DNA of 32,000 nucleotides from Candidatus Brocadia sp. GTDB lineage: Bacteria; Planctomycetota; Brocadiia; Brocadiales; Brocadiaceae. Positions within the stretch are counted from its first letter, which is position 1. Each line of letters opens with the position of its first letter. Of this stretch, positions 375-25,504 are shown piece after piece. The notes below the pieces were generated by a model that saw only the letters and a list, made by a program, of their open reading frames with translations, had not been told where the DNA came from and did not search any database. The stretch is taken from contig CP091279.1 of assembly GCA_021650915.1 (NCBI GenBank), positions 2,580,001 through 2,612,000 of the forward strand, given 5' to 3'. Made by a program: the position numbers and the translations under genes.

Positions 375-447
375 GTAGGGGCGAAGCATTTGCCACACCA
401 TTTAATTTGCGTTCCGGCTCTTGACACGGCAAATGCTTCGCCCCTAC
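375..447. repeat. long REP-like hairpin: perfect 20-bp arms GTAGGGGCGAAGCATTTGCC / GGCAAATGCTTCGCCCCTAC around a 33-nt loop
   Basis: The arms at 375-394 and 428-447 are exact reverse complements. They share the GTAGGGGC...GCCCCTAC termini of the shorter REPs elsewhere in the window. The element lies 18 nt after the upstream stop codon. Confidence 0.85.
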
Positions 448-478
448 AACAATTTTGTTGTCGGAAAGGGAAGAATAA

Positions 479-541
479 ATGCCACGTATCTTCGATAACA
501 TAGGGCAACAACTCCTCCCTGCGCGGCTGGAAGCAACTTGA
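479..541 (+). pseudogene. orphaned 5' end of the PLD-SNF2 helicase gene, out of frame with the main ORF
   Basis: ATG at 479 follows GGAAAGGGAAG and encodes MPRIFDNIGQQLLPA before hitting TGA at 539-541. The main helicase frame is open from 504 and reads ..SLRGWKQLDKYIEQWNGGEGNSCRLLVGM(600). From memory, intact family members start MPxIFDNI..LLPAL, then about 20 aa, then DFCVGYFNLRGW. A short deletion near 519-524 therefore seems to have removed codons and shifted the frame. Confidence 0.55.
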
Positions 542-599
542 CAAATACATCGAACAATGGAATGGCGGCGAAGGAAATTCCTGCAGGCTCCTTGTTGGC

Positions 600-3500
600 A
601 TGCAGAAGCCTCCCCATGAACAATTAAGGCAGTTCTACAGCCTCCTTCCCCAGGATGATGCCATAAGCAATCAGGTTATTCTTCGCCTCAAGAAAAAACT
701 GGCTGAGGATTTTCGAAATCAGCTTACTCTTGGCGCGCCAACGGATGAAGACGAAGCAGGCCTTCGCCGCCTTGCCTCTCAACTGAAAGCAGGAAAGGTC
801 GTTGTTAAACTCTTTCTTAAACATCCGCTCCACGCCAAACTTTATCTCTGTTTCAGGCAGGATACGATCAATCCTATCATCGGCTATCTCGGTTCAAGCA
901 ATCTCACCCTTGCAGGGCTATCTCAGCAAGGTGAACTGAATGTGGACGTCCTTGACCACGACGCTGCGCAAAAACTTGCAAAATGGTTTGAAGACCGCTG
1001 GAATGACCGCTGTTGCGTGGATATAACGAATGAACTGATTAGGGCCATAGAAGAGAGCTGGGCAAGAGAAGAGGCATTGTGCCCTTACTGGATTTACATC
1101 AAAATGGCGTATCACCTTGCTGAGGAGGCAAGGGCAGGATTGTCTGAATTTGAGATTCCCCGCGATATGCGCAATATACTCCTTGAGTTCCAATCTGCCG
1201 CCGTTCGTATCGCTGCGCGCCATCTTGAAAAACGGGGCGGGGTTATCCTTGGCGATGTCGTTGGATTAGGAAAGACCCTTATGGCAACAACGCTTGCCAG
1301 AGTCTTTCAGGAGCCGCCTCATCTGCTTGAGACACTGATTCTCTGCCCTAAAAATCTTGTCTCCATGTGGGAGGGTTATGTGCATCGCTACCGGCTGATT
1401 GCAAAAGTTGTGTCAATCACCCAGGCACAAAATATCCTCCCAGAACTCCGCCGCTACCGGCTGGTAATCATTGATGAAAGCCATAATCTCCGCAACCGCG
1501 AAGGCAGACGGTGGGCAGTAATCAGAGACTATATTGAAAGAAATACGAGCAAATCTATCCTCTTATCCGCAACACCCTATAATAAGGTTTATCTTGACCT
1601 TGCCAACCAGTTGAGGCTGTTTCTTCATGCGGATGATACCATCGGCTTTCGTCCGGAGGAATACCTTCGCCGTGAGTGCGGTGGCAGGGTGGATGAATTT
1701 ACAAGGCGGCATCAGTGCCCTGTCAACTGCCTGTCTGCCTTTGAAAAGAGCGGATATTCAAATGACTGGCGGGAACTCATGCGCCTGTTTATGGTGCGCA
1801 GAACACGAAGTTTTGTGGAAAGAAATTATGCATATACTGAATGTCAGGCTTGCAACGCTATTCTTACGCCAACTCAGAATAATTGTCCTTCATGCGGACG
1901 AATTAAGTCCAAAGACGACAAAAGGTTTTTAATTCTTGAAGGCGATGTCCGTTTTTATTTTCCCAAGAGGTCTCCCAGGACGCTTTCCTTCGACTGTAGT
2001 GATAAAGACACTCATGACCAGTTTGCCCGTCTTTACTCAGACAGGGTCGTGAATATTATGAGAGACCTTCATCTGCCTCGTTACGGACTCGGGAACTATC
2101 TAAAACCAATGCCGGACAGCCCGCCGACACCAGAAGAAGACAGAGAGATGAGAAATCTTTCACGGGCGGGGAAAAGACTCATCGGGTTCTGCAGAACAAA
2201 TCTTTTCAAAAGACTTGAAAGCAGTGGAAATTCCTTTCTCCTCTCTGTCCGGCGGCACATACTGCGCAATCATATTTATCTTCACGCCATTAAAAACGGA
2301 CTGCCTTTGCCTGTCGGGACACAGGATTCGGCGTTATTTGACACCAGAAATGATGACGGGGATAGCGAGGATTTGCCCTGCGGAACAGAGCAAAGGGGCG
2401 CAAACAGACCTAACGAGCTGACGGCAAATTCACTTCATGAGTTTGCTCAGGTAGCCGCATCTGATTACGCATTGCTTACGACACGATATGCAAATAATTT
2501 TACCTGGTTAAGGGCAAATTTATTTATCGATGACCTTGCCAAACATTTAAAAGAAGATGCAAGCCGGCTCTTTGAGATTTTAAGCATTGCCGCCCAGTGG
2601 CAGCCGGAGAAAGACAATAAACTCAAGGCGCTTTATAATCTTCTTACACAAAGGCATCCTGATGAAAAGGCGCTGGTATTCTCACAGTTTTCGGATACTG
2701 TGGAATATTTGAATGAAAAGCTTCAAGACCTGGGTATAAAAAAGATTGCCGCTGTTACCGGAGATACAGAGAATCCGGCATCCTATGTTAAAAAATTCAG
2801 TCCTGTAAGCAACGACGCAAGGGATGAAATTCCCCCATCAGAAGAATTGAGGGTGCTTATTTCCACCGATGTATTGAGCGAAGGGCAAAATCTTCAGGAT
2901 GCTCACATTATCGTGAACTATGACTTGCCCTGGGCAATAATCCGTCTTGTTCAACGGGCAGGCCGTGTGGATAGAATCGGCCAGAAGTCAAAAGAAGTTC
3001 TCTGCCATACCTTTTTGCCTGCAGAAGGTGTTGAGCATCTTATCAGGCTGCGTTCAAGGATTCGCCATCGGTTACAGGAAAATGCCGAGGTAATCGGAAC
3101 CGATGAGGCATTCTTTGAAGACGAACAACATGACAATGTTATACGCGATCTCTTTACCGAAAGGGCAGACATGCTGAATGACCCTGAAGACGAGGAGGTT
3201 GACCTCGCCTCGCTTGCATACCAGATATGGAAGAATGCCGGTGACGTTAATCCTGAACTCAAAAAGATAATTCCTGATTTGCCCAATGTTGTGTTTTCCA
3301 CCAAACCAGTATCAGACGAAAAAACAACGGGTGTTATGGTGTATGTCCGCACTGCTGATGGAAATGACGCCCTTGCATGGCTCGATGAAGATGGCACGGT
3401 GGTAACTGAGGCGCAGCACGAAATCCTTACTGCCGCTGCCTGTGAGCCTGACACCCCTGCGCTGCAAAGGCTTGAAAATCATCACAAACTTGTCCGGAAG

Positions 3501-3851
3501 GCGGTAGAGGGCATTCAGAAAGAGCACCCCTTAACGGGCGGACAGCTTGGCAGACCCTCAAGCGCCCGCCGCCGCGCCTATGAAAGGCTGAAGGATTATG
3601 CTGAAAGGATAAGCGGCTCTCTGTTTGATAGAAAATCACTGCATTCAGCCATAGGCGCAATTTATGAACAGTCCCTCACGGAATATGCAAGGGACATTAT
3701 TAATAGAGAACTCCGCACGGGCATCTCAGATGAAAAATTTGCAGAGATCATAATCTCTCTTTATGAGGAGGGGCGACTCTGCGCGCCAAAGGAAGAGACC
3801 GGCAGCAATGAACCTCAGATTATCTGTTCACTGGGCATCAGGAGGGGATAG
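600..3851 (+). CDS. PLD(HKD)-nuclease-domain / SNF2-family helicase (5'-truncated relative to family)
   Basis: HKD motif HPLHAKLYL...GYLGSSNLTLAGL. Helicase motifs GDVVGLGKTLMA (I), LVIIDESHNLRN (II, DExH), LLSATPYNK (III) and QNLQDAHIIVNYDLPWAIIRLVQRAGRVDRIGQ (V-VI). A CxxC...CxxC insert (ECQACN..NCPSCG) lies at about 1842-1898. The stop TAG at 3849-3851 is 2 nt before the methyltransferase GTG. Confidence 0.9.
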   Translation: MQKPPHEQLRQFYSLLPQDDAISNQVILRLKKKLAEDFRNQLTLGAPTDEDEAGLRRLASQLKAGKVVVKLFLKHPLHAKLYLCFRQDTINPIIGYLGSSNLTLAGLSQQGELNVDVLDHDAAQKLAKWFEDRWNDRCCVDITNELIRAIEESWAREEALCPYWIYIKMAYHLAEEARAGLSEFEIPRDMRNILLEFQSAAVRIAARHLEKRGGVILGDVVGLGKTLMATTLARVFQEPPHLLETLILCPKNLVSMWEGYVHRYRLIAKVVSITQAQNILPELRRYRLVIIDESHNLRNREGRRWAVIRDYIERNTSKSILLSATPYNKVYLDLANQLRLFLHADDTIGFRPEEYLRRECGGRVDEFTRRHQCPVNCLSAFEKSGYSNDWRELMRLFMVRRTRSFVERNYAYTECQACNAILTPTQNNCPSCGRIKSKDDKRFLILEGDVRFYFPKRSPRTLSFDCSDKDTHDQFARLYSDRVVNIMRDLHLPRYGLGNYLKPMPDSPPTPEEDREMRNLSRAGKRLIGFCRTNLFKRLESSGNSFLLSVRRHILRNHIYLHAIKNGLPLPVGTQDSALFDTRNDDGDSEDLPCGTEQRGANRPNELTANSLHEFAQVAASDYALLTTRYANNFTWLRANLFIDDLAKHLKEDASRLFEILSIAAQWQPEKDNKLKALYNLLTQRHPDEKALVFSQFSDTVEYLNEKLQDLGIKKIAAVTGDTENPASYVKKFSPVSNDARDEIPPSEELRVLISTDVLSEGQNLQDAHIIVNYDLPWAIIRLVQRAGRVDRIGQKSKEVLCHTFLPAEGVEHLIRLRSRIRHRLQENAEVIGTDEAFFEDEQHDNVIRDLFTERADMLNDPEDEEVDLASLAYQIWKNAGDVNPELKKIIPDLPNVVFSTKPVSDEKTTGVMVYVRTADGNDALAWLDEDGTVVTEAQHEILTAAACEPDTPALQRLENHHKLVRKAVEGIQKEHPLTGGQLGRPSSARRRAYERLKDYAERISGSLFDRKSLHSAIGAIYEQSLTEYARDIINRELRTGISDEKFAEIIISLYEEGRLCAPKEETGSNEPQIICSLGIRRG

Positions 3852-3853
3852 CC

Positions 3854-5005
3854 GTGCCTTTTGAGATTGCCCGCGCAAGACCGCTCCTTCAAAAGGCAGA
3901 GTTGGCAAAGTTGTTTTGTGAAGAACTCGGCTGGGAGTCATGCCGTAACAGCATTGAAATCCGTATTAATGAGTCTGATTATACCCTCAATGCCCTTGCT
4001 GAAAAGAAGGGCTTTGTTGCCTGGATTTATACAAGCCCTGACAACACCCTGCCAGACCACAACACCCGCCTGAAACTCGACCGCAAACTCTCTGAAACAA
4101 GCTTTGAGCACCTCATTGTCTTTAGAACCAATGACCAAGCAAGGCAGTCATGGATGTGGGTAAGAAGGGAGGCAGGACGCCCCCTTCGTGCCCGCACGTA
4201 TGAATATCAACGAGGGCAAGCGGGTGATGCATTGCTCCAGAAGATTCAGCGCCTTTATATCTCACTTGAGGAGGAAGAATCGGGCATCTCCATTACTCAA
4301 GTCTCAGGCCGCGCAAGAGCAGCCTTTGATGTTGAACGAATAACAAGGCGGTTTTATGAAAGGTTTCAAAGAGAGCATGCTGCATTCCTTAATTTTATCA
4401 AGGGCATTCCAGTTGAAGAAGACAGGGCATGGTATGCCTCAGTGATGCTCAACAGGCTCATGTTCCTGTATTTCGTACAGAAAAAGGGCTTCCTTGATGG
4501 AGACCCAAACTACCTCCGCAACCGCCTGAAGGCCATGCAGGAAAGGCACGGCAGAGACAAATTCTATTCCTTTTATCGCTATTTCCTCCTCCGTCTATTT
4601 CACGAAGGGCTTGGCAAAATAAAACACCCACATGAACTTGAGTCTCTGATCGGCAAGGTTCCTTACATAAACGGCGGAATCTTTGATGTGCATGCTATTG
4701 AAGAAAATTACGGGAAGGATATTCAAATCCCTGATAATGCCTTTGAAGCCATATTTGACTACTTTGATGAATACGATTGGGCGCTCGACCCTGAGCGGTC
4801 TCAAAGAAACTCCACAGACAGAGAAGAGATCAACCCTGATGTCCTCGGCTACATCTTTGAAAAGTATATCAACCAAAAGCAGATGGGCGCATACTACACC
4901 AAAGAGGACATCACAGAATATATTAGCAAAAATACCATTATCCCGTTTCTCTTCAACGCGGCACGGCAAAAGTGCCGGATTGCATTCGAGGGAGGCGTGC
5001 CTTGA
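3854..5005 (+). CDS. N6-adenine DNA methyltransferase (Eco57I/type IIG-like), N-terminal part = exon 1 (true exon end about 4996)
   Basis: Family-typical motifs are present: VERITRRFYERFQREHAAFLNFIKGI, DRAWYASVMLNRLMFLYFVQKKGFLDGDPNYLRNRL, MGAYYTKEDITEYISKNTIIPFLF. The ORF's terminal VP* codons are intron sequence. Confidence 0.8.
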   Translation: MPFEIARARPLLQKAELAKLFCEELGWESCRNSIEIRINESDYTLNALAEKKGFVAWIYTSPDNTLPDHNTRLKLDRKLSETSFEHLIVFRTNDQARQSWMWVRREAGRPLRARTYEYQRGQAGDALLQKIQRLYISLEEEESGISITQVSGRARAAFDVERITRRFYERFQREHAAFLNFIKGIPVEEDRAWYASVMLNRLMFLYFVQKKGFLDGDPNYLRNRLKAMQERHGRDKFYSFYRYFLLRLFHEGLGKIKHPHELESLIGKVPYINGGIFDVHAIEENYGKDIQIPDNAFEAIFDYFDEYDWALDPERSQRNSTDREEINPDVLGYIFEKYINQKQMGAYYTKEDITEYISKNTIIPFLFNAARQKCRIAFEGGVP

Positions 5006-7001
5006 AGTATGGGATACCTAAGTGGTTGAAAATATCACCTCTGCGAGCCTAAATCCTCGTAGAGAAGTTTGTACCTATGCGTATACAAAGGAGCAATCCG
5101 TATGCGTAGAAGGATAGCGTATTCCCGTGAGGGGTATGACGGAGTACGAGGTACAGACGACCTTTTGGGGTGTATGAGTATGGCGTGTTAGTTCGTGCCA
5201 ACTGCCCTTTCTCAGTGAAGCACTGACAATGTCCTTGTTGGAGATGTCAAAAGAGACCTGGTGAAAACATCTCTGGATAATGCGTTTGAACATACATCAC
5301 GAAGGGAAAAGGGGTAATCCATATGACCGGGGGAGGACTTACGTCTTGGGAAGAAATTCCCTAACAGCGAGGTATAAGGGAAATCCGAAATCCAAGCTGT
5401 ATGAGATGGTGACGGACGACTGGCTCTCACAGGTCTGTCTTTGAAGTCGTCAGCAGTGCTCATAATAGTTTCTGGTGTAAGCCAGGAATGAAGGGGCATA
5501 ACCGTAGTGGAGTTGATGAAACGTGGTAGATTGAATACGTTCCATGAGAAAAGAGACTCTTTGCATGGGCAAGTAGTAGCAAGAGACTCTCTTGTTTTGC
5601 CTCTGTCAGGAGGAATCTCGACTCAGGAAACACGATTGACAAGTCTATTATCCGGAATCAATCAAAAGGAACATATCGGGAGATGCTTAAGTATCATTCT
5701 TTAAGAGACAAGGTATTCAGTCTGAGAAACCTTTATGCGGCTTTTGGGCACGTAAAGAAGAATAAAGGCAAGGCTGGTCTCGACAGGGTAAGTATTAAGC
5801 AGTTTGAAAGTGACCTTAAGAATAATCTACAAGCTATTCACAAGGAACTGAAAACCGCCATATACAACCCTGCACCCGTCTTAAGGGTCTACATTCCCAA
5901 AGGCAGGCATGACAAGAGACCTCTTGGCATTCCCATTGTTAAGGACAGGGTAGTACAGCAAGCGTTCAGACAAATCATAGAGCCAATATTCGAGAAAGAA
6001 TTCTCAGATAACAGCTTTGGATTTCGTCCAAACAGATGCTGTCATGATGCTATCAAACGGATTGAACAGTATAAGCAGCAAGGGTATCGGAACATTTTGG
6101 ACGCCGATATAAAGGCGTTCTATGACACCATACCTCACAAGCTTATCATGAACTCCTTGCGTGAGAAAATCGCTGACGGATGGGTTTTGAACAGTATCGA
6201 GAACATGCTCAAGGCAGGGGTCATGGAGAACGGCATCGTGCACGAGACAAATCAAGGCACTCCGCAAGGAGGCGTCATATCCCCCTTGCTTGCAAACCTT
6301 ATCGGTGACATCATCGACAAGGAGCTTGAAAAGGCAGGATATAAATTTGTCCGCTATGCCGATGACTTCATTGTCATGACTAAAACAAAAGAAGAACTCC
6401 CTACCGCCCTTCAGTACGTCAAAGAAATCATCGAAGGGAAACTTGAAATGAAGCTGAGCGAGGATAAAACCAGGCTCACCAACTTCAAACGAGGCTTCCG
6501 GTTTCTCGGATATAATTTCATGGGCAAGAACAAGGGTGTAAGCATGAAATCCCTGGACAAACTCAAGGACGCCGTTAGAGACATCACCAAACGCACACAA
6601 GGCGTCAACCTGCAAGCCGTCATTGATACATTAAATCCTGTCATAAGGGGACATGTCAACTATTTTCGGCTGGGCAATGTACAAACGGTATATCGCTCGT
6701 TAGACTGCTGGGTACGCATGAGACTGAGAAGTTTCAAGTTTTCGAGAAAATGGAAAACTGACAACAAACGTTTCCCGGTACACCGATTCTTTAAGATGGG
6801 GTTACTCTCATTTGAAAGAGAATTTCTTAAGGCACGTGCGAAGGCATGATAGTTTACTTTTCTCTGCTCCAGAGCAACACTATGGGGTCGCTAACTACGG
6901 GAAAGCCGTATGGTTTAAAAGGATACTTTGTCACGTTGTCCAAAGTATCTGGCGACGATTGGGGGTTGGAGGCGGTTCGCCTCCTTCCTACCAGCTAACA
7001 C
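4997..7001 (+). mobile_element. group II intron inserted in the methyltransferase ORF, sense orientation (boundaries +/- a few nt)
   Basis: Exon-1 frame ends ..CRIAFEGG. The exon-2 frame opens at 6999 with (H)SIWRLLQMSPDRYIY, and joining 4996 to 7002 gives one continuous ORF. The element starts GTGCC (GUGYG-like), ends AC, and has an RT/maturase ORF in the domain IV position. AGCCGTAT at 6904-6911 matches the 5' half of domain V. The terminal hairpin at 6961-6992 (GGGGGTTGGAGGCG-GTT-CGCCTCCTTCCT[A]CC) has a bulged A at 6990 like a domain VI branch point. I could not fold a canonical domain V by eye. Confidence 0.75.
5683..6849 (+). CDS. group II intron reverse transcriptase/maturase (no En domain)
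   Basis: RT motifs RPLGIPIVKDRVVQQA, ILDADIKAFYDTIPH, GTPQGGVISPLLANL and VRYADDFIVM (YADD). Maturase/X region LNPVIRGHVNYFRLGN. The 388-aa protein has no HNH tail. GGGAG lies just upstream of the ATG. Confidence 0.92.
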   Translation: MLKYHSLRDKVFSLRNLYAAFGHVKKNKGKAGLDRVSIKQFESDLKNNLQAIHKELKTAIYNPAPVLRVYIPKGRHDKRPLGIPIVKDRVVQQAFRQIIEPIFEKEFSDNSFGFRPNRCCHDAIKRIEQYKQQGYRNILDADIKAFYDTIPHKLIMNSLREKIADGWVLNSIENMLKAGVMENGIVHETNQGTPQGGVISPLLANLIGDIIDKELEKAGYKFVRYADDFIVMTKTKEELPTALQYVKEIIEGKLEMKLSEDKTRLTNFKRGFRFLGYNFMGKNKGVSMKSLDKLKDAVRDITKRTQGVNLQAVIDTLNPVIRGHVNYFRLGNVQTVYRSLDCWVRMRLRSFKFSRKWKTDNKRFPVHRFFKMGLLSFEREFLKARAKA

Positions 7002-7097
7002 TCCATCTGGCGTCTCTTGCAAATGTCCCCCGATCGTTATATATATCCGGCGGTGAAACATGGCATTGTGCAAAACGATATTGTCAAACCCGTCGTT

Positions 7098-7126
7098 GTA
7101 GGGGCGGGTTTGAAACCCGCCCCTAC
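7098..7126. repeat. REP element GTAGGGGCGGGTTTGAAACCCGCCCCTAC inside the methyltransferase CDS
   Basis: This is a perfect 29-nt palindrome. In the CDS frame it is read as VGAGLKPAPT. Confidence 0.9.
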
Positions 7127-7550
7127 CAGACATTTGCCGCCGGAAATTGCCGCTGGTTTGCACGATGTCTCCAAACGCACTGAATGGAATAAACCGGCGC
7201 CACCAGAATATGCCCTACCCACAGAAATCTGGCGCGAGGTAGTGGCTAGGCGCAAACGTTATGAAGAAGTCCGCAGGAAACTTGAATCCGGAGAGGTTCG
7301 TGATATTAACGACCTTATCACCTTTAATCTTGACATAAGGCAGTTTGCACAGGATGTAATCTCAAATTGTGAAGGGCCTGACCTCTTAAGGGCATTTTGG
7401 AATGTCATAAAAGACATTTCCATCCTTGACCCAACCTGCGGCTCCGGGGCATTTTTGTTCGCAGCCCTTAACATACTTGAACCGCTCTATGAAGCCTGCC
7501 TTGACCGTATGGAAGAGATGCTTGAAGACGAATCGGCAAAACATAATATC

Positions 7551-7578
7551 GTAGGGGCAATTCATGAATCGCCCTTAC
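7551..7578. repeat. REP-like variant GTAGGGGCAATTCATGAATCGCCCTTAC inside the methyltransferase CDS
   Basis: It is an imperfect palindrome with the same GTAGGGGC head and a CCCTTAC tail, read in frame as VGAIHESPLR. It falls in a stretch that looks like an insertion relative to my memory of the family. Confidence 0.6.
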
Positions 7579-7781
7579 GGCATACCCCTCACGGCTATCC
7601 TTTATTGCCGCATAGAAAATTGGAAGATTTCTCACATACCCTTGAGCAGGTAGCACACCACCCAAATAAGCAATACTTCATTTACAAAGGCATAATCCTC
7701 AACAATCTTTACGGCGTGGACGTCATGGAAGAGGCAGTGGAAATCTGCAAACTGAGGCTCTTCCTCAAACTCGCTGCCTAG

Positions 7782-9290
7782 GTTGATCCTGATACTTCTA
7801 AACCCAATTTCGGCATTGAGCCATTGCCTGACATTGATTTCAATATTCGCGCTGGGAATACGCTGGTGGGGTTTACCGCCCTGGAGCAAATAAAAAAGGC
7901 TATTACGACTGAAAAACACGGTCAAGCGCCCCAAAAAAGATTGTTGCAACAGGAAGATTTAGACACGATGAAACGGATTGAAGAAAAGGCGCAGGACATC
8001 GACAGTTTGTTTGCCCTGTTTCGCCAGCAGCAGACAGAGTTGGGAGGTGAAGTGACGACCGCCGACAAGCAGGAATTAAGGAAACGGTTGAAGGCGCTGG
8101 AGGACGAACTCAACCGATACCTTGCCTCAGAGTATGGGATAAGCCAGAACCATTTCAAGAGCAAACCGCCGTATGAAAAAAAGTTTTCAGAATGGCTTGC
8201 CTCACATAAACCGTTCCATTGGTTTATCGAATTTCACGCTATTATGAAGAATGGCGGGTTTGATGTGATTATCGGGAATCCGCCGTATGTGAAGTATAGT
8301 AAAGTTAAAGATGATTATACTATCAAAGGTTATAAGACAGAAAATTGTGGAAATCTCTATGCATTTGTTATGGAGAGATCGCTATCTCTTATTAGAAAAC
8401 AAGGACGATGTGGTTTGATAATTCCTATTGCTTCAGTATCTACAAATGGCATGAGTGAGTTGCAGCAATTATATGATGATTATATACAATGGCATAGCCA
8501 CTATGCTACCAGACCAGGAAAACTGTTTATGGGCGTTGATATGAATCTTACTATTAGTTTGTTAACGCATTTTGATAAGCATAAACACTGCACATCCTAT
8601 AGTACATTTTATTATCGTTGGTCAAATGGAACTATTACGGATAGAGATTCTTTATTCCAAAGACTTCAATATATAGAATTACCAAGTAATGTTAAACTTG
8701 CTAACAAGTATCCAAAGTTAGGCTCATCTGTTGAATTAAAAATAATACGCCAAATGTTAAGCAAGGGACAAAAAATTGAAAACTATTACGATAGAAATGG
8801 TAAAATTTTATATTATCACTCAGGTGGAAGATATTGGCGAAAGGCTCTTCCTCAAAAGCTATCATCACATTATAAACCTGTTACCATTTCAGAGAAAACC
8901 TTTGAAGCATGTTTTTGCTTGCTTAATAGCCAGCTTTTCTATTGGTATTGGATAATAAATTCCAATTGCATGGATGTCGTTGAAAGGGAGGTTTTTAAAT
9001 TGCCAGTTTTCAATTTAACGGATGTTAATTCAGAAGACTTTTATAAGTTGATGAATGGTCTTTTGTCTCAATATTCTACAAGCACAACAATACGGCCACG
9101 TCGTGGTGAAATAATTAATACTGATGAGATAAATTTTGATGTTCAAAAGTCAAAACCAATCATTGACGAAATCGACCGTGTCCTTGCCAGGCATTACGGT
9201 TTCACGGATGATGAACTGGATTATATCATCAATTATGACATCAAATACCGTATGGGACGCGTTGCCCTGGAAAATGACGAATCATCGTGA
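7782..9290 (+). CDS. methyltransferase exon 2, second segment (catalytic NPPY motif + target-recognition region + conserved tail); no credible own start
   Basis: It continues in frame after the TAG. Motifs: DFNIRAGNTLVGF, FDVIIGNPPYVKY (NPPY at 8277-8288), and the C-terminal family tail GFTDDELDYIINYDIKYRMGR. The ORF-track start at 7824 is only an internal TTG. Confidence 0.8.
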   Translation, partial: VDPDTSKPNFGIEPLPDIDFNIRAGNTLVGFTALEQIKKAITTEKHGQAPQKRLLQQEDLDTMKRIEEKAQDIDSLFALFRQQQTELGGEVTTADKQELRKRLKALEDELNRYLASEYGISQNHFKSKPPYEKKFSEWLASHKPFHWFIEFHAIMKNGGFDVIIGNPPYVKYSKVKDDYTIKGYKTENCGNLYAFVMERSLSLIRKQGRCGLIIPIASVSTNGMSELQQLYDDYIQWHSHYATRPGKLFMGVDMNLTISLLTHFDKHKHCTSYSTFYYRWSNGTITDRDSLFQRLQYIELPSNVKLANKYPKLGSSVELKIIRQMLSKGQKIENYYDRNGKILYYHSGGRYWRKALPQKLSSHYKPVTISEKTFEACFCLLNSQLFYWYWIINSNCMDVVEREVFKLPVFNLTDVNSEDFYKLMNGLLSQYSTSTTIRPRRGEIINTDEINFDVQKSKPIIDEIDRVLARHYGFTDDELDYIINYDIKYRMGRVALENDESS

Positions 9291-9320
9291 TACGGCAATT
9301 GTGGATTAGATTGTTGATTT

Positions 9321-9349
9321 GTAGGGGCAGGTTTGAAACCTGCCCCTAC
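9321..9349. repeat. REP element GTAGGGGCAGGTTTGAAACCTGCCCCTAC upstream of the RAYT gene
   Basis: This perfect palindrome differs from the 7098 copy by a compensated G/C to A/T pair. It lies 17 nt upstream of the RAYT ATG. Confidence 0.9.
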
Positions 9350-9366
9350 CTGACATATGGAATACC

Positions 9367-10020
9367 ATGAATTACGACCCTGAAAAACACCGTCGCCGTT
9401 CGATCCGTTTGAAAGGATATGATTATACACGGCCGGGGGCATACTTTGTGACCATTTGTACAGAAGGGCGGGTATGCCTCTTTGGAAATATTTCTGGCGA
9501 AACGATGCAGTTGAATGCATTCGGAAGGATTGTTCAAACGCATTGGAATGATTTGCCACATCATTATCCACAGGTGAAATTAGACGCATTTGTAATCATG
9601 CCCAACCATGTGCATGGAATCATTATTTTAACTGAAATAGACATGGTAGGGGCGGGTTTGAAACCCGCCCCTACCATCAAACAACATGGATTGCCAGAAA
9701 TCGTGCGTGCATTAAAAACATTTTCCGCGCGTCGAGTTAATGAATTACGCAACACCCCTGGTGTCTCGCTCTGGCAACGTAATTACTACGACCACATCAT
9801 ACGAAACGAAAGGGCATTAAACATAATTCGCCGTTATATTCTGTACAATCCGTTGATGTGGGCGTACGACATGGATAATCCAGACAGACATCCCTTATCC
9901 ACAGAAAAAATGAAATCTGGGATGAAACAAAAATGTGGTTTTACGGACGAGGAACTGGACTTCATCATCGATTATGATATTAAATATCGCATGGGGCGTG
10001 AGACGGATGACGAGATGTAG
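9367..10020 (+). CDS. REP-associated tyrosine transposase (RAYT, IS200/IS605-like Y1 HUH) with a chimeric C-terminus
   Basis: N-terminus RRSIRLKGYDYTRPGAYFVTICT, HUH motif MPNHVHGII, catalytic Tyr region WQRNYYDHIIRNE, and NPLMW near the usual family end. The last ~25 codons (GFTDEELDFIIDYDIKYRMGR...) instead match the methyltransferase tail. REPs flank the gene on both sides. Confidence 0.85.
   Translation: MNYDPEKHRRRSIRLKGYDYTRPGAYFVTICTEGRVCLFGNISGETMQLNAFGRIVQTHWNDLPHHYPQVKLDAFVIMPNHVHGIIILTEIDMVGAGLKPAPTIKQHGLPEIVRALKTFSARRVNELRNTPGVSLWQRNYYDHIIRNERALNIIRRYILYNPLMWAYDMDNPDRHPLSTEKMKSGMKQKCGFTDEELDFIIDYDIKYRMGRETDDEM
9646..9674. repeat. REP element GTAGGGGCGGGTTTGAAACCCGCCCCTAC inside the RAYT CDS
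   Basis: It is identical to the 7098 copy. It is read in frame as VGAGLKPAPT, just after the HUH motif. Confidence 0.9.
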
Positions 10021-10045
10021 GGGCGGGTTTCAAACCCGCCCCTAC
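10017..10045. repeat. REP element GTAGGGGCGGGTTTCAAACCCGCCCCTAC overlapping the RAYT stop codon
   Basis: It has a 13-bp stem and the central loop differs by one base (TTC vs TTG). The TAG stop at 10018-10020 lies within the GTAG head. Confidence 0.9.
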
Positions 10046-10062
10046 CATTACAATAAAATATT

Positions 10063-10680
10063 ATGAACATAATAAAATTGCATAAAGGCGACCCTTCTTA
10101 TCCAACCGCCCTGCAAACCCATCTTGGCGATAATGCACCAGAATTTATCACTGCTTTGGGCAATCTCGGCATCCTTCAGAATAAACCATTAGCCTTGTTC
10201 TGTTCCATCAAATGTCCCGGCAGTATTATCCTGCAGGCCTATGACCTTGCGCAGCATTTGAGACAGGCGGGAGCGACAGTCATCAGTGGCTTTCATACAC
10301 CGATGGAACGTGAATGCCTGAACATTCTGCTGCGCGGCTCACAGCCAATTATCATTTGCCCAGCCAGAAGCATTGAAGGTATGCGGATTCTTGGCACATG
10401 GCGCCGTCCAATTGACGAAGGGCGCCTTTTAATCCTTTCACCATTCGACCAGAAATATCGTAGGATTACAGCGGCGCTTGGGGAAAAGAGAAATGAGTTT
10501 GTAGCGGCGATTGCCGACCGGATATTTGTCGCTCATGCAACACCCGGCGGAAAGACTGAACAATTCTGCCGAAAGATAATTTCATGGGACAAACCCCTTT
10601 TGACGTTCAGTTGCAATGAAAACATGAGCTTAGTGAGTATAGGAGCAAGGTATGTCGAAATAGAGGATATACTAAGATAG
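10063..10680 (+). CDS. DprA/Smf-like Rossmann (SLOG-type) domain protein
   Basis: The pattern resembles the DprA core: YPTAL..LGDNAP.FITALGNLGIL..KPLALFCSIKCPG, LAQHLRQAGATVISGFHTPMERECLNILL, then LLILSPF....RITAALGEKRNEFVAAIADRIFVAHATPGGKTEQF. At 205 aa it is only the core domain. No obvious RBS. Confidence 0.65.
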   Translation: MNIIKLHKGDPSYPTALQTHLGDNAPEFITALGNLGILQNKPLALFCSIKCPGSIILQAYDLAQHLRQAGATVISGFHTPMERECLNILLRGSQPIIICPARSIEGMRILGTWRRPIDEGRLLILSPFDQKYRRITAALGEKRNEFVAAIADRIFVAHATPGGKTEQFCRKIISWDKPLLTFSCNENMSLVSIGARYVEIEDILR

Positions 10681-10707
10681 TTATTTTAATTAGTACGGGA
10701 AAGAATC

Positions 10708-11052
10708 TCAAACCATGATGTCTAAAAGACTCTTTTGCATTTCTTCAGATATTTTCAATGCGGCGACATTGGCAGACAGGAGGTGTTTTGCGCCTACCTG
10801 GATGGGAATTTCCTCAGAAATCTCCACGTTTGACGCCTCACTGATATTTCCATTTGCATGCTGATACCCTGGTCCTGGTTCAGAGCTTTCCCTGATGTTT
10901 ACCATAACGCCACCATGGTTACCTTCGCTCAGGCTAACACGCTGTTTCTTATATCCGTCAGTATTTATATTCGCAGTATTATGCGCTGATACGCTCATTA
11001 TATGGAATGCTGCTTGTATCCCGAAAACCGAAGAGCTAAAGGATAATGACAT
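10708..11052 (-). CDS. small flagellar basal-body rod family protein (FlgB/C/G-like termini)
   Basis: A strong RBS (GGGAGG, 6-nt spacer) precedes the ATG at 11052. The N-terminus VSAHNTANINTDGYKKQRV resembles the rod signature (..N.AN.NT.GYK). The C-terminus SNVEISEEIPIQVGAKHLLSANVAALKISEEMQKSLLDI resembles the rod C-terminal segment (SNVD..EM....A...Y.AN.K.I...DEM...LL.I). Confidence 0.55.
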   Translation of the reverse strand: MSLSFSSSVFGIQAAFHIMSVSAHNTANINTDGYKKQRVSLSEGNHGGVMVNIRESSEPGPGYQHANGNISEASNVEISEEIPIQVGAKHLLSANVAALKISEEMQKSLLDIMV

Positions 11053-11358
11053 AACCTACCTCCCTAGATATTTTTTTCGTTGTAAGCACTAAAATACCAC
11101 TGTATTATCGGCATGATCAAAAATATTTCAAAATACACGAGACGGGTGGTTTATGCGGTATCTTCACAAAGTTGCTAAAAATGCCACAATGCTCTTTTAC
11201 GACACACCTGTCAGTTAAAATGTATTGCATACCGGAGGTAGATAGAGGTATAGTTATAGTTATACTCCACAGTCTCATAATTTGTGATTTATAGTAGTTC
11301 TACACGGACAAACAGAGTTTGTCCATACCACCTATTATCAATTTAAAATTCACATTTT

Positions 11359-11660
11359 ATGAGCATCTTGAGTATAGTATTAAGAAAGGACGCAGACACA
11401 AAAGAGCAAATAAGCTGGACAGGGATGCAGGCCACAGGGACAATCCTCTGTCAGATATTCAAAAATACCGGTTTCCATATTTTTGCCAGCCTAGATTATA
11501 TGTCCAGGATACGCGGCGGTAATAATTTCTTTCAGCTCAGGGTTTCCGACAGGCCACGGCATACCCTTCGGTAAAAATCGGATATTACGGTAGCCTTAGA
11601 TAAGGCAAGCGTGGTCCTTCACCAGTCAGGCATTGCGGATGGCGGCATTTTGATTCCGGG
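11359..11660 (+). pseudogene. fragment of a 2-oxoacid:ferredoxin oxidoreductase alpha subunit (N-terminal ~100 codons, in-frame TAA)
   Basis: GFHIFASLDYMSRIRGGNNFFQLRVSDRP matches the KorA/PorA-type N-terminal signature (..Y.SRIRGG.N.FQ.R.S..P). An in-frame TAA lies at 11572-11574. The same frame continues DITVALDKASVVLHQSGIADGGILIPG, after which similarity is lost. No RBS. Confidence 0.55.
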
Positions 11661-12255
11661 CAAAAAATTTTTCTTAAGACTATTCAAACCTGATATAGAA
11701 AATGATCAAATGGACGGATTCCCAATAAATTTTATCGAGTGTGATTGTCTGCAAACATCAGAGTAAAATTAACGTTAATCCAGTCGTATAAAATATTCAG
11801 GCTCCGGTTACAAACCTGCACCCGCTGTGGTATCGTTCTATACGATTCGAGTTTACGGAGGAGCGTATTTAACTATGAACTTAACACAACTTATTGAAAA
11901 AAAATTATTTGCGATGTTAAGAAAATTCCCTGCCCAGGCGATAAAAAAAAAGTGTGGATGTGTGGACAGCAATAACCCTGCAAAATCTCATCAAAAGACA
12001 GTTGCGACTGGGCATATGTAAGTATAATAGAGAAGCTGATAAATAAATACGTATTGAAGTTAAAAGAAAATACCTTACGAACTCTCTGGAAAGAAACAGA
12101 GGTAGGGATGCAATGTCCGGATGACGAGGGGTTTCCTGCCGACTCCCTTCGACATGATCTGGAAATGGAATTACTGGACTTGATTACCCATAGAGCATGG
12201 GAAGAAGGTCAGCCATGAGATAAGCATTCTGTAAACAAGGAACGTTATATAAACA

Positions 12256-12372
12256 TTGGTGTTTTCCGCAAAAGGGCGCGTTTTGATTTTGATTCATACC
12301 GAACGACAAGGTAAAATACGTGTTATCAATTGTAGGAAAGCTACAACGCATAAAAGGAGATTTTTGAAGAAG
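12256..12372 (+). pseudogene. C-terminal fragment of a BrnT-like (DUF497) toxin
   Basis: GRVLILIHTERQGKIRVINCRKATTHKRRF resembles the BrnT C-terminus (..vv.t.R....iRIISARKAT..E...). The frame is closed by TAA at 12248-12250 just upstream, so no intact N-terminus exists. Confidence 0.4.
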
Positions 12373-12417
12373 GCAATTTCTAAAGAAATGCCTGAGAAAG
12401 AAGATATGAAGGCGGGG

Positions 12418-12509
12418 AGATTGCTTCGGAAAAGGCCCTCGCAATGACAGCGACCATGCACTTTGATGGCACACTGCACGTTGTCATTGCAAGTGAAGCG
12501 AAGCAATCT
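12418..12509. repeat. imperfect 92-bp palindromic element (AGATTGCTTCG..CTCGCAATGACA / TGTCATTGCAAG..CGAAGCAATCT)
   Basis: Outer arms AGATTGCTTCG (12418-12428) and CGAAGCAATCT (12499-12509) are exact reverse complements. Inner arms GCAATGACA (12441-12449) and TGTCATTGC (12482-12490) are also exact reverse complements. Confidence 0.6.
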
Positions 12510-14466: not shown

Positions 14467-16185
14467 GTAACTATTCAGCGAAAATATTTTAGAATTTAGT
14501 TGACAGTCAACATGAGAAAAGGGGGCCGTAGAATTGGTTGGTAGAATAAATGGCTGTGGAGGATGCCACTGTAGCCCATCGGAGGTTTTTGCAAAGAGAG
14601 GTGTGGGGTATGTTCGGCCAGAGAATTACAGAGTTTTGTAGGGCGGTAGAGGGTGAAAAAAATGGGTGAAAAAGCCTGTGGTATAATAGCCGCAGGAGAT
14701 GATTTCAGGCTATTAATACCGGTGCCATCCATTGACGATAGAGAATATAGATATAGATGCAACGCTGCGGAAAGTAGAAAAGCTGCTTTCAGAGGAAAAA
14801 GGTCTGTCACCTGCCATAAGGTCAATGATAGAGTTGTTGGTGTTAGTGATAACGCTGCTGGTAGGACGTCTGAACCGGAACAGTCGCAACAGTAGTAAGC
14901 CGCCCGCAAGCGATCCGAATCGCACGAGAAAGAGCAGGGCGAAAGGAGAGAGGAAGGCAGGTGGGCAAGAGGGTCATGATGGAGTAACGCTGAAAAAGGT
15001 AGCCAATCCTGATAAGGTGGAAGTAATAAAAGTAGACCGGAGGAAGTATCCGAGCGGCAAATACAGGTTGATCGGTTATGAGTCGCGTCAGGTGTTTGAT
15101 ATGAAGATTTCAAGGGTGGTAACGGAGTATCGGGCAGAGATAGTTGAGGATGCGGAGGGAAGTAGGTTTGTAGCGTCATTTCCGGAAGGGGTGACAAAGG
15201 CAGTGCAGTATGGGCCGGATTTGAAAGCGCACGCAGTATATATGTCACAGTATCAATTGATACCCAATAAGAGGATCCAGGAGTATTTTGAGGAGCAGAT
15301 GGGGATACCGCTGAGCGAAGGCTCTCTTTACAACTTTAACAAGGATGCCTACGAATCTCTGGAAGCCTTCGAGAGGAAAACCAAGGAAGAACTTGTCAAA
15401 TCAGAGGTATTGCAGGCAGATGAAACGAGCATCAACAAGAACGGAGACAGGTATTGGCTGCATAGTGCATCCAATAGTTTGTGGACACACTTTTTCCCTC
15501 ACGAAAGACGTGGGACGGAAGCGATGGATAGTATCGGGATACTGCCCCAGTTTCGGGGGATTCTTTGTCACGACCATTTGAAGGCGTATTACACCTACAC
15601 CCGCTGTACACATGCGCTCTGTAATGCACACCACCTGAGGGAATTGGAAGGGGTGTGGGAAGAGGATAAGAAGCAACCGTGGGCGAAAGAGATGAAAGCC
15701 CTGCTCGAAGAGATAAACCGTGCGGTAAAGGATGCGGGGGGTTTGTTGGAAAACGGCGAGTCTGAGAAATACCGGCAAAGGTACCGGGGGATATTACAAA
15801 ACGCAGAAGCTGAAAGCCCGCCCCCTGATGAAACGAACCGTAAGGGGGAAAGAGGGCGGGTAAAAAGGACAAAAGCACGGAATCTCCTGGAACGATTACG
15901 GGAGTATGAGGGTGATGTGCTCAGATTTATGGACAATAAAAACGTCCCCTTCACGAATAACCTGGCCGAAAACGATATCAGGATGACGAAGGTTCAGCAG
16001 AAGATATCGGGCTGTTTTCGTTCTCTGGACGGAGCGAAGATCTTCTGCCTCATCCGTAGTTATCTCTCGACTTGTCGAAAACAAGGGGTAAATTTAAGTC
16101 AGGCATTACGGATGGTATTTCGCGGCAAATTGCCTGATTTTGCCAGCTCGTAACGATAGGGGGCGATATTACGCTGAATAGTTAC
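14467..16185 (+). mobile_element. IS66-family insertion sequence, single-ORF (ISBst12-like) type, 1719 bp
   Basis: Perfect 14-bp terminal inverted repeats: GTAACTATTCAGCG (14467-14480) and CGCTGAATAGTTAC (16172-16185). The 8-bp direct target duplication CTTGAATT lies at 14459-14466 and 16186-16193. Both the 8-bp TSD and the GTAA-start IR are IS66-family hallmarks. Confidence 0.9.
14732..16153 (+). CDS. IS66-family (ISBst12-like) transposase
   Basis: LQADETSINKNG..YWLH, ILCHDHLKAYYTY and HALCNAHHLRELEGV are typical of DDE_Tnp_IS66 proteins. The start is TTG. The extended -10 TGGTATAAT at 14679-14687 lies upstream inside the IS. Confidence 0.9.
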   Translation: MTIENIDIDATLRKVEKLLSEEKGLSPAIRSMIELLVLVITLLVGRLNRNSRNSSKPPASDPNRTRKSRAKGERKAGGQEGHDGVTLKKVANPDKVEVIKVDRRKYPSGKYRLIGYESRQVFDMKISRVVTEYRAEIVEDAEGSRFVASFPEGVTKAVQYGPDLKAHAVYMSQYQLIPNKRIQEYFEEQMGIPLSEGSLYNFNKDAYESLEAFERKTKEELVKSEVLQADETSINKNGDRYWLHSASNSLWTHFFPHERRGTEAMDSIGILPQFRGILCHDHLKAYYTYTRCTHALCNAHHLRELEGVWEEDKKQPWAKEMKALLEEINRAVKDAGGLLENGESEKYRQRYRGILQNAEAESPPPDETNRKGERGRVKRTKARNLLERLREYEGDVLRFMDNKNVPFTNNLAENDIRMTKVQQKISGCFRSLDGAKIFCLIRSYLSTCRKQGVNLSQALRMVFRGKLPDFASS

Positions 16186-16506: not shown

Positions 16507-17532
16507 CTATGTTAGTAGATCGAATTTTTTCCAGCGATGAATAACGGGGGCTTCATTAATTTCAGATATTCCTTTTAATATTCTATTTCGCAATTCGACA
16601 ACAGAATCAACCCTAATGTGCTTTAAGAAGGTTCGGGCCATTTTACCAAATAGTGTTTCCACCAGATTAAGCCAGGAGCCGTGCTTTGGAGTATGAACAT
16701 AAACGAATCTATTTGGCCGGCTTGATAGATATCGCAAGGTCTCTTTTGAAATATGCGCAGAATGATTGTCTAAAACAATTCGTATCGTATATGCTGATGG
16801 ATAAAAGGCATCCAGTTCTTTTAAAAGCTCGATAAATTCTTTGCTTCTGTGACGTTCATGAACCTGGGCTATTACATGCCCTGTATGCAAATCTAAAGCG
16901 GCTAATATGCTCACGGTTCCCAAGCGTTTATATTCATAATCTCGGAGAACCTGAGGACATTTACCTGCTATAGGTTTTAAGTCTGGTGCAATATTTTTTA
17001 TTGCCTGAACACCGGGCTTTTCATCTACGGAAACGGTAATCGTTCGATTGCCAGAAATTTTTTCTGAAGCATCTTGTTTGTTTTGCAGGTTAACCTCTTG
17101 GTAAACCATAAGGACGTCTTCCATTTTACGCTTAAATTCTGGATCCCGTTTCTCTAAATAATAGCGTATCTTATGTGGTTGTACGGGATGTTCTTTTAAT
17201 ATTCTATGAATCGTGGCTTTTGAGGCCTTTGAAAGACACGCATATCCCTCCTGGGGGGCATATTTTCTTGTGTGTTTTGCTAAAAGGCTTTGCGTCCACA
17301 GTTCTGCTGCATATCCATGGTCTTTGGGTTTTGTGCATGCAATATTTACAACCCACATCTTTGCATTCTCGGTAATTGTGGGCTCTTTGGGCCGATGATA
17401 TTTATCTCTTAGCGCTTCTTCCGGGCCTAACGCCAATGCCTTTTCAATGTATTTATAAATGGTTTCCCTGCTTAGCCCTATCGATTTTTGAATTGCTGTT
17501 ATAGATTCTTCTTGATACTTCTTAAGAAGCAC
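16507..17532 (-). CDS. IS630-family (Tc1/mariner-like DDE) transposase, main part; separated from its N-terminal HTH segment by an in-frame TAA
   Basis: VSVDEKPGVQA, ILAALDLHTGHV and VLDNHSAHISKETLRYL...HTPKHGSWLNLVETLFGKM are typical of IS630 DDE transposases. The ORF-track start is a GTG immediately after the TAA at 17533-17535. Confidence 0.85.
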   Translation of the reverse strand: MLLKKYQEESITAIQKSIGLSRETIYKYIEKALALGPEEALRDKYHRPKEPTITENAKMWVVNIACTKPKDHGYAAELWTQSLLAKHTRKYAPQEGYACLSKASKATIHRILKEHPVQPHKIRYYLEKRDPEFKRKMEDVLMVYQEVNLQNKQDASEKISGNRTITVSVDEKPGVQAIKNIAPDLKPIAGKCPQVLRDYEYKRLGTVSILAALDLHTGHVIAQVHERHRSKEFIELLKELDAFYPSAYTIRIVLDNHSAHISKETLRYLSSRPNRFVYVHTPKHGSWLNLVETLFGKMARTFLKHIRVDSVVELRNRILKGISEINEAPVIHRWKKFDLLT

Positions 17533-25381: not shown

Positions 25382-25504
25382 AACAAAACTCCATGTTTTG
25401 ATGAGAGACAGGCGAAAAAACGCAAGTAATATATCAAAAGACATTCAGAATAGCCAGTATTTCTTTCCTTGACGCCAAGACATTTCAATCTTGTAGATGC
25501 AATT

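Follow-up and report, generated by a model that had tools for sequence, protein, structure and literature searches.

What does a restriction–modification (RM)-like locus in a Candidatus Brocadia genome encode, and how much of it has been lost? The question concerns a 32,000-nucleotide stretch of that genome (the window, whose numbering is used throughout), in which a nuclease-helicase gene, an adenine methyltransferase (methylase) gene and a DprA-like gene occupy positions 479 to 10680, together with an intron, repeats and a transposase gene. The original prediction regarded these additions, along with a frameshift and a stop codon, as at least five independent events of decay. Comparison with related loci shows that this is the Brocadia copy of a widespread, RM-like three-gene operon (nuclease-helicase, methylase, DprA-like). 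Its first two genes have in all likelihood been knocked out recently, and the intron, the repetitive extragenic palindrome (REP) hairpins and the REP-associated tyrosine transposase (RAYT) gene are, on the same likely reading, not lesions. Two true knock-outs therefore remain from the proposed series of events, which still agrees with the proposal of an RM-like helicase, methylase and DprA-like locus in which both large genes are dead in this genome.

All of these genes lie on the + strand, in the order that had been proposed. The 3′ end of a membrane-protein gene is followed by the helicase gene, the methyltransferase pieces (with a reverse transcriptase (RT)/maturase open reading frame (ORF) between the first two), the RAYT gene and the DprA-like gene. 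The methyltransferase starts at GTG 3854, after a 2-nt gap behind the helicase. The operon and its knock-outs comprise the following features.

479–519, + strand: original helicase start, ATG 479 (MPRIFDNIGQQLLP...), cut off from the rest by the frameshift
519–522, + strand: deletion junction, with 62 nt lost between 519 and 520 at a TGC microhomology; frame +1
522–3851, + strand: helicase remainder, PLD/HKD nuclease and SNF2 (PLDc_2, SNF2-rel_dom, Helicase_C); first usable start ATG 600 (1083 aa)
3854–4996, + strand: methyltransferase exon 1, N-terminal alpha/beta domain and helical region, 381 codons
6999–9290, + strand: methyltransferase exon 2, with motif I DPTCGSG, the premature TAG, NPPY, the target recognition domain (TRD) and a C-terminal motif
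7779–7781, + strand: nonsense TAG, replacing the Gln of LKLAAQV, between motif I and NPPY
8378–9150, + strand: replaced TRD, GC about 0.37
10063–10680, + strand: DprA-like gene, intact, single domain, 205 aa, conserved last gene of the operon

The helicase matches PLDc_2 and RE_NgoFVII, then SNF2-rel_dom and Helicase_C, as well as the PADLOC profile 'HKD+Snf2' (4e-47). The methylase pieces at 3854–5005, 7017–7781 and 7824–9290 are colinear with positions 12–372, 400–598 and 614–1096 of PADLOC PDLC03628 ('REase_MTase_IIG'). Comparators were syntenic sister Brocadia loci, obtained from exact-protein look-ups. One of them, L087 (GCA_030409075.1, about 90% nucleotide identity), has an intact 1144-aa helicase, a 1151-aa methylase, the RAYT gene and the DprA-like gene. 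Another, L114 (a Joint Genome Institute (JGI) metagenome, about 96% nucleotide identity), has an intact helicase of 1144 aa and a methylase of 1183 aa.

The first knock-out lies at the 5′ end of the helicase gene, where a deletion or frameshift had been suspected, and it is real. The 17 orthologue N-termini that were compared begin MPRIFDNIEQQLLPALQETL..RADFCVGYFNLRGWKQLD, while the window reads MPRIFDNIGQQLLPA and then runs out of frame, with RGWKQLD resuming in the +1 frame. The 62-nt deletion at 519|520 is seen against L087, L114 and these 17 N-termini alike. Besides shifting the frame, it takes out some 21 conserved codons of the PLD core (about 16–36, LQE...DFCVGYFNL). Helicase motifs 3′ of the deletion are intact (HAK...GSSN, GLGKT, DESH, QRAGRVDR). 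The truncated ORF recurs in at least 23 independent SRA assemblies, whose contigs all stop 21 nt into the intron. Judged from these alignments, the deletion is specific to this lineage, costs the PLD domain its first strands and is predicted to be inactivating.

The second knock-out is the in-frame TAG, which was also correctly identified. The Gln at this site is invariant across a 63-sequence orthologue alignment, and its codon is CAG in L087 and L114. The stop codon is present in four assemblies, namely LAQJ01000230 and three further samples. NCBI contig LAQJ01000230 (GCA_000987375.1) is 99.97% identical to window positions 6838–12479 and runs across the junction of intron and exon 2. Because the TAG sits between DPTCGSG and NPPY, any product would lack the catalytic motif and the TRD. 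The change from CAG to TAG is thus likewise a lineage-specific and presumably inactivating mutation.

The remaining features of the locus are mobile or repetitive elements, listed here with the upstream gene and the hairpin that adjoin them.

3–503, + strand: membrane-protein gene, 3′ end
375–447, no strand: large REP hairpin upstream of the helicase, with 20-nt arms (GTAGGGGCGAAGCATTTGCC) and a 33-nt loop
4997–6998 (or 4995–6996), + strand: group II intron, inserted in sense, 2002 nt, with its boundary placed to within 2 nt
5683–6849, + strand: intron RT/maturase ORF (RVT_1, GIIM; TIGR04416 400 bits against a cut-off of 300)
7098–7126, + strand: REP1 hairpin, in frame, codes VGAGLKPAPT, variable loop
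7550–7579, + strand: REP2-type imperfect palindrome, in frame, codes IVGAIHESPLR
9321–9349, no strand: REP hairpin 3′ of the methylase stop, right edge of the segment absent from B. pituitae
9367–10020, + strand: RAYT gene (HUH HVH, WQRNYY)
9646–9674, + strand: REP hairpin inside the RAYT ORF, in frame, codes VGAGLKPAPT, common to L087
10017–10045, no strand: REP hairpin overlapping the RAYT stop codon

The group II intron is a genuine 2002-nt insert, absent from L087 and L114 and so specific to this lineage. Its reading as a lesion is doubtful, as excision rejoins the frame (FEGG|HSIW, compared with FEGEHS[V/I]W in orthologues). A DNA pattern scan revealed 16 further insertion sites with unrelated flanks and identical 5′ ends, the copies being 95–100% identical and directly preceded by the target consensus GAG-N4-GC. 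This number of near-identical copies in unrelated flanks marks an active, multicopy retroelement. Sense orientation, restoration of the frame and membership of a multicopy family all suggest that splicing probably removes this mobile-element insertion, which would make it neutral and no lesion. Its 3′ boundary is placed by L087 and L114 alone, since the contigs fetched for the other copies do not contain their 3′ ends, and an exact look-up of the RT protein returned no record.

The REP hairpins are equally real and appear to be harmless. Half-sites of the form GTAGGGGC are confined to the locus: all 11 in the 32-kb window fall within 375–10045, against a chance expectation of 0.6, and none fall in 10046–32000. 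The occurrences at 7098–7126 and 7550–7579 are likewise far more than chance predicts. These two had been counted as insertions that damaged the methylase, yet they are in frame, and the methylase of L087, uninterrupted at 1151 aa, contains both. REP1 also occurs in P0002, and a diverged version of it in P0011. L114 has a diverged REP2, and at its REP1 site a different, larger REP that is still in frame. Both sites correspond to loops of variable length within the methylase family. In other orthologues, the REP2 loop hosts whole in-frame domains, either a RAYT-like Y1_Tnp domain (L049:4205-8257, P0055) or SLFN_AlbA_2 (L030:7515-11492, L042:13200-17048), and the ORFs remain open through the insert. 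From these comparisons, the methylase hairpins are best described as older, in-frame, tolerated passengers, not lesions.

Two side observations concern such inserts. The helicases of L075 (9818-13939) and L076 (7765-11943) carry an in-frame Y1_Tnp domain near the C-terminus. In L115 (GCA_002050315.1, Brocadia sp. UTAMX2), which is the L114 locus with a methylase in two parts (477 + 718 aa), the large in-frame methylase REP is 46 nt shorter than in L114 (L115:5534-5800, compared with L114:5488-5800), and this splits the gene at the REP. The shorter REP reflects either a real deletion within the loop or collapse of the hairpin during assembly.

The RAYT/REP unit between the methylase and the DprA-like gene was also rightly recognised, although it does not qualify as a lesion, being present in all four Brocadia loci (the window, L087, L114 and the B. 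pituitae locus L116). It is a REPtron, that is, a Y1 (HUH plus Tyr) transposase with REP hairpins on both sides. Its NF047646 score, 65.6 bits, does not reach the cut-off of 80, a shortfall for which the internal REP is probably responsible. The RAYT gene is intact and shows purifying selection, with a ratio of non-synonymous to synonymous substitution rates (dN/dS) of 0.09 between the window and L087. These properties indicate an old, tolerated passenger.

The last 30 or so RAYT codons (about 9922–10011) are a second, diverged copy of the C-terminal methylase motif (GFTDEELDFIIDYDIKYRMGR). The source of this copy is explained by L114 (7692-9132) and L115, where 5.0 tandem copies of a 291-nt unit comprise the methylase 3′ end and a REP hairpin. 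The window (9150–9349 and 9937–10045) and L087 keep two diverged copies of this unit, flanking the RAYT gene. A 420-aa 'gene' behind the L114 methylase was considered as a fourth component of the operon and rejected, being an out-of-frame ORF through the five tandem 291-nt repeats. A further observation at the distal REP comes from L003:1-896 (Logan DRR774208), in which an identical DprA-like gene meets, at the REP (window 10015), a different upstream sequence coding for a Peptidase_S24 protein. This junction reflects either a rearrangement or a mis-join that the assembly made at the REP.

Alignment to intact orthologues had been named in the original prediction as the comparison that might reveal its supposed lesions to be normal features of the family. 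This proved true for three of the six items listed, whereas the 62-nt deletion, the TAG and the intron are lineage-specific. The density of hits had also been taken as a sign of relaxed selection, which is rejected, as neither dN/dS nor branch-specific counts give it any support. Between the window and L087, dN/dS is 0.11 for the helicase, 0.15 for methylase exon 1 and 0.21 for the DprA-like gene. With L087 as outgroup, synonymous/non-synonymous changes are distributed as follows.

Helicase: window branch 28/11, L114 branch 28/10
Methylase exon 1: window branch 17/9, L114 branch 17/15
Methylase exon 2 up to the TRD: window branch 37/8, L114 branch 27/10

Compared with the intact L114 branch, the window branch thus shows no non-synonymous excess, and 1109 + 1143 codons contain no additional stop or frameshift. 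Consequently, the two knock-outs are recent and decay is incipient.

Elsewhere in the genus, the same module has been removed outright. The B. pituitae locus (L116, AP021856) has the same flanking genes but keeps only the RAYT and DprA-like genes of the operon, and lacks the equivalent of window 450–9372. The boundaries of this segment are the left REP, whose hairpin at 375–447 forms the left edge, and the RAYT start. The RAYT ORF of B. pituitae ends in a degraded methylase motif (KYGFTNEELDFIIDYETKYRVGR), a remnant from which it follows that the methylase was present in its ancestor. The split methylase of the UTAMX2 assembly (L115) is counted as another case of breakage. Repeated and independent loss or breakage of the helicase–methylase module within Brocadia is supported by these sequence comparisons. 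Many independent hits packed into the window genome are not.

The order in which the window lost its genes may be constrained by their proposed roles. Loss of the methylase under active restriction would be lethal, so the nuclease would have been lost before the methylase or together with it. The TRD adds a further event to this branch. Neither its replacement nor the duplicated methylase 3′ end had featured in the original prediction. The window TRD (8378–9150) is unrelated to the one common to L114 and L087, which are 86% identical to each other in nucleotide sequence there; its closest match is that of P0008, with 63% aa identity. Because L114 and the outgroup L087 share another TRD, the replacement occurred on the window branch. 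It would imply an altered methylation specificity shortly before or after inactivation.

Such a swap could have triggered the loss. In that case, the new TRD would have exposed unmethylated host sites, selection would have favoured a knock-out of the nuclease-helicase, and the methylase would then have become dispensable. The unrelated, low-GC (0.37) TRD and the recent knock-outs do fall on the same branch, which is compatible with adaptive loss. We nevertheless consider it unlikely. The sequence does not give the order of events, and systems in which a single TRD serves modification and restriction alike normally tolerate its exchange. In B. pituitae, moreover, a REP-bounded deletion removed the module without requiring a trigger of this kind.

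The operon itself is defined by its recurrence across bacteria. A genome scan recovered 80 helicase orthologues with 46–69% aa identity, from many phyla. In every locus with enough sequence (64 of 64), a methylase homologue stands behind the helicase on the same strand, mostly with little or no gap. A DprA-like gene was found by profile on the same strand, 0–5.3 kb 3′ of the methylase, in 33 of the 50 loci with at least 3 kb of flank. In the reverse approach, starting from DprA-like homologues, helicase and methylase lay upstream in two of the three sampled loci. In total, at least 8000 methylase homologues and 1578 DprA-like homologues were found.

Genes between the methylase and the DprA-like gene vary by locus and belong to typical defence or toxin–antitoxin families. 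They include RhuM, AlbA_2/HATPase_c_4, AAA_15/21, PIN, HTH, AbiEi/Eii, HNH, OLD-TOPRIM with UvrD, and HicA, and DUF1016/YhcG sometimes lies between helicase and methylase. Besides the helicase, methylase and DprA-like genes, no conserved neighbour cluster was detected in the orthologous loci.

In the window, the DprA-like protein is of full length, has retained each of the 20 residues that are invariant in its family and carries the invariant motifs SxKCPG, GFHSPxE and CPAR. Its structural model has a mean predicted local distance difference test (pLDDT) score of 93.6, and template modelling (TM) scores of 0.79 to DprA (3UQZ) and 0.79 to the antitoxin ShosA (8ZVA). It is not a canonical DprA: TIGR00732 gives 24.7 bits against a cut-off of 191, and the protein is a single Rossmann-like domain of 205 aa.

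The gene could also stand outside the system, either as cargo or as an independent neighbour such as the orphan antitoxin of a PsyrTA/ShosTA-like pair. It matches PADLOC PsyrA (5.5e-19), and PsyrTA is found inside a BREX operon in Halomonas (PMC11232893). The gene may act independently of helicase and methylase, since it is absent within about 6 kb in about a third of the loci (17 of 50, within the available flank) and survives alone in B. pituitae and in L119. We hold this to be rather improbable, and somewhat more so than adaptive loss. Where the gene is present (the 33 loci, in many phyla) it is on the same strand and always downstream, with different intervening genes each time, and it directly adjoins the methylase in L023, L026 and L058. 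Furthermore, neither a RecQ-like (PsyrT) nor a phosphoribosyltransferase (PRTase; ShosT) partner lies beside it in the window or the orthologous loci. As a side observation, the L119 homologue (9823-10645) has no helicase or methylase within 10 kb and adjoins an HATPase_c_4 fragment, IS110 transposases and DUF4238. L119 is possibly another eroded operon that has retained only its last gene.

Comparison with described systems helps to place this operon. The methylase model finds its best full-length structural matches in BREX PglX/BrxX. Its N-terminal domain has an alpha/beta fold (model residues 1–105, pLDDT about 90), in which E85, H86, W100, W102 and R105 are invariant and no conserved D...ExK occurs across the 63-orthologue alignment. 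Given this PglX-like methylase without D...ExK in its N-terminal domain, the PLD domain of the helicase is taken to be the nuclease of the system. A sequence search of solved structures gave no match for the methylase or the DprA-like protein, and for the helicase only generic SNF2/DEAD matches.

In Type-2 BREX-related (BR) systems, an HKD nuclease is likewise fused N-terminally to a Swi2/Snf2 helicase and paired with an N6-adenine methylase (PMC12839542). The authors of that study (Rakesh & Krishnan, NAR 2026, PMC12839542) propose an RM-like logic and describe auxiliary effectors embedded in the loci. What defines a BR system is a DUF499 AAA+ ATPase, joined in Type-2 by a DUF3780 gene (PMC12839542). 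DUF499 is missing from the gene tables of L087, L114, L116, L117 and L118, and from the families listed for 29 large neighbouring ORFs. DUF3780 does not appear in the Pfam tables of the Brocadia loci, L117 and L118, nor among the best 25 of 35 families of 59 genes from methylase to DprA-like gene. Assignment to a Type-2 BR or Hma system is rejected on these grounds. The present operon also differs in closing with a DprA-fold gene; PMC12839542 contains neither the term 'DprA' nor the term 'SLOG'.

Class 1 DISARM offers a similar set of parts: DrmD is an SNF2 helicase, DrmC a PLD nuclease and DrmMI an adenine methylase of Eco57I type. Partial matches link the helicase to DrmD (PADLOC and NCBIfam) and the methylase to DrmMI (PADLOC). 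With the DrmD profile NF038317, the score is 127 bits where the cut-off is 610, and the match is confined to the C-terminal helicase lobe. In the present operon, however, PLD and SNF2 are one protein, and the DISARM core genes DrmA (YprA-type helicase) and DrmB (DUF1998) are absent from the window and the orthologous loci. DISARM is rejected for lack of these two genes.

Among RM systems, Type IIG/IIL enzymes (MmeI, Cj0031 type) also combine a methylase (motif I, NPPY) and a TRD in one polypeptide, and the methylase matches PDLC03628 over its full length. It differs from them in lacking a conserved N-terminal D...ExK and in resembling BREX PglX, not MmeI, most closely in structure. Type III and Type ISP systems share the combination of a helicase-nuclease and a site-reading methylase. 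Compared with Type IIG/IIL and Type III/ISP systems, the nuclease here is of PLD type and lies on a separate SNF2 protein.

The DprA-like protein, for its part, is reminiscent of ShosA (ShosTA) and PsyrA/RqlI (PsyrTA/RqlHI) in its single DprA Rossmann-like domain and in its pairing with a potentially genotoxic nucleic-acid enzyme. ShosA binds single-stranded DNA (ssDNA) and RecA and counteracts DNA damage from its toxin (PMC12961424, PMC11961720). RqlI is reported to restrain a RecQ-like helicase (PMC4670107). In the present operon, the partner is a PLD-SNF2 helicase with a methylase, not a PRTase or a RecQ-like helicase, and the DprA-like protein is shorter (205 aa) with invariant motifs of its own.

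The two-gene core has a precedent in Milman et al. (NAR 2023, PMC9881135), who list a 'Type II RM enzyme homologous to Cj0031' beside a PLD + SNF helicase coding sequence in the context of programmed TRD inversions. Judged by domain description, the arrangement is the same, but it is given there as genomic context only, with no third gene, name or function. The literature search returned no paper on a DprA-like third gene or a cargo slot of the helicase–methylase pair. The window locus thus appears to be a broken member of a known, poorly characterised pair, whose intact form is an apparently undescribed three-gene variant.

An intact operon might work as follows. The methylase, a BREX-PglX-like N6-adenine enzyme, would mark host DNA at sites read by its own C-terminal TRD. 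The PLD-SNF2 protein would translocate on unmarked DNA and cut it in an ATP-dependent manner, as Type III/ISP systems do. The DprA-like protein, by analogy with ShosA and RqlI, would bind ssDNA or RecA and limit self-inflicted DNA damage.

How firmly can the Brocadia copy be called broken? Several observations weigh against that reading of the locus. Searches of the whole window at gathering thresholds, and of 4950–7100 at E<=5, gave no Rfam Intron_gpII domain V/VI match, only a weak match to D1–D4. The intron begins with GUGCC rather than GUGYG, and folding of its last 160 nt produced no convincing domain V (z = -1.9). The splicing competence of this copy is thus argued from the mobility of its family. 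Read-through of the TAG, or a C-terminal fragment restarting at TTG 7824, may be compatible with the sequence, and a protein from ATG 600 could still provide an SNF2 motor. The roles given to the three proteins, moreover, follow from domains and analogy.

Taken further, these points would amount to a system that still functions, with the intron spliced, the TAG read through or bypassed, the helicase made from ATG 600 or by frameshifting, and the supposed lesions regulatory or harmless. In favour of this, loss of the intron would rejoin the frame, and the element is a member of an active family. Outside the lesions, both ORFs are clean and bear signatures of purifying selection, and every catalytic motif downstream of them is intact. 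Recent inactivation accounts equally well for the clean ORFs, however. The deletion takes about 21 conserved PLD-core codons (DFCVGYFNL) and not merely the frame, the TAG hits a Gln that is invariant in 63 orthologues, and sister lineages lose the module outright. A functional system is consequently very improbable. Sequencing or assembly errors have a negligible chance of being the source of the lesions, for although the region is rich in repeats that break short-read assemblies (REP hairpins, the multicopy intron), the same lesions recur in many independent assemblies (the helicase truncation in at least 23 contigs, the TAG in four assemblies, and both intron junctions).

A pseudogenised restriction system is in itself ordinary. 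With recent knock-out of the first two genes as the preferred reading, the interest of the Brocadia loci is that they form a clean, datable series of loss, in which two point-like knock-outs without later erosion stand beside the REP-bounded deletion of the module in a sister species that kept the last gene. They also illustrate that repeat hairpins, a transposase gene and an intron should be counted as lesions only after comparison with an intact orthologue, since REP sequence has become coding in working methylases. The same comparison reveals a conserved DprA-fold third gene and a cargo slot in a pair previously listed only as context. Should the DprA-like protein prove to be a safeguard linked to RecA, as in ShosTA, the operon would represent a novel means by which an RM-like system keeps self-damage in check.

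A more general proposal can be put forward tentatively, with slightly less confidence than doubt. The helicase, methylase and DprA-like genes would together form an unnamed and very widespread defence system, present in dozens of phyla, in which a DprA-fold, RecA/ssDNA-binding protein would be the built-in safeguard or sensor of the PLD-SNF2 motor. The stretch before the DprA-like gene would be a docking slot for defence genes, and the methylase would tolerate in-frame REP, RAYT or AlbA_2 sequences in one loop. Brocadia would then provide a natural series from intact, through freshly broken, to deleted with the DprA-like gene kept.

Beyond the operon, the window contains IS66-family and DDE_3 transposase genes downstream of the locus (14732–16153 and 16507–17532). 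Further along, on the - strand, a 1946-aa nSTAND1 NTPase with about 21 WD40 repeats (18036–23876) adjoins a 523-aa TIR-domain protein (23873–25444), and this pair constitutes a second conflict-type module of the window.

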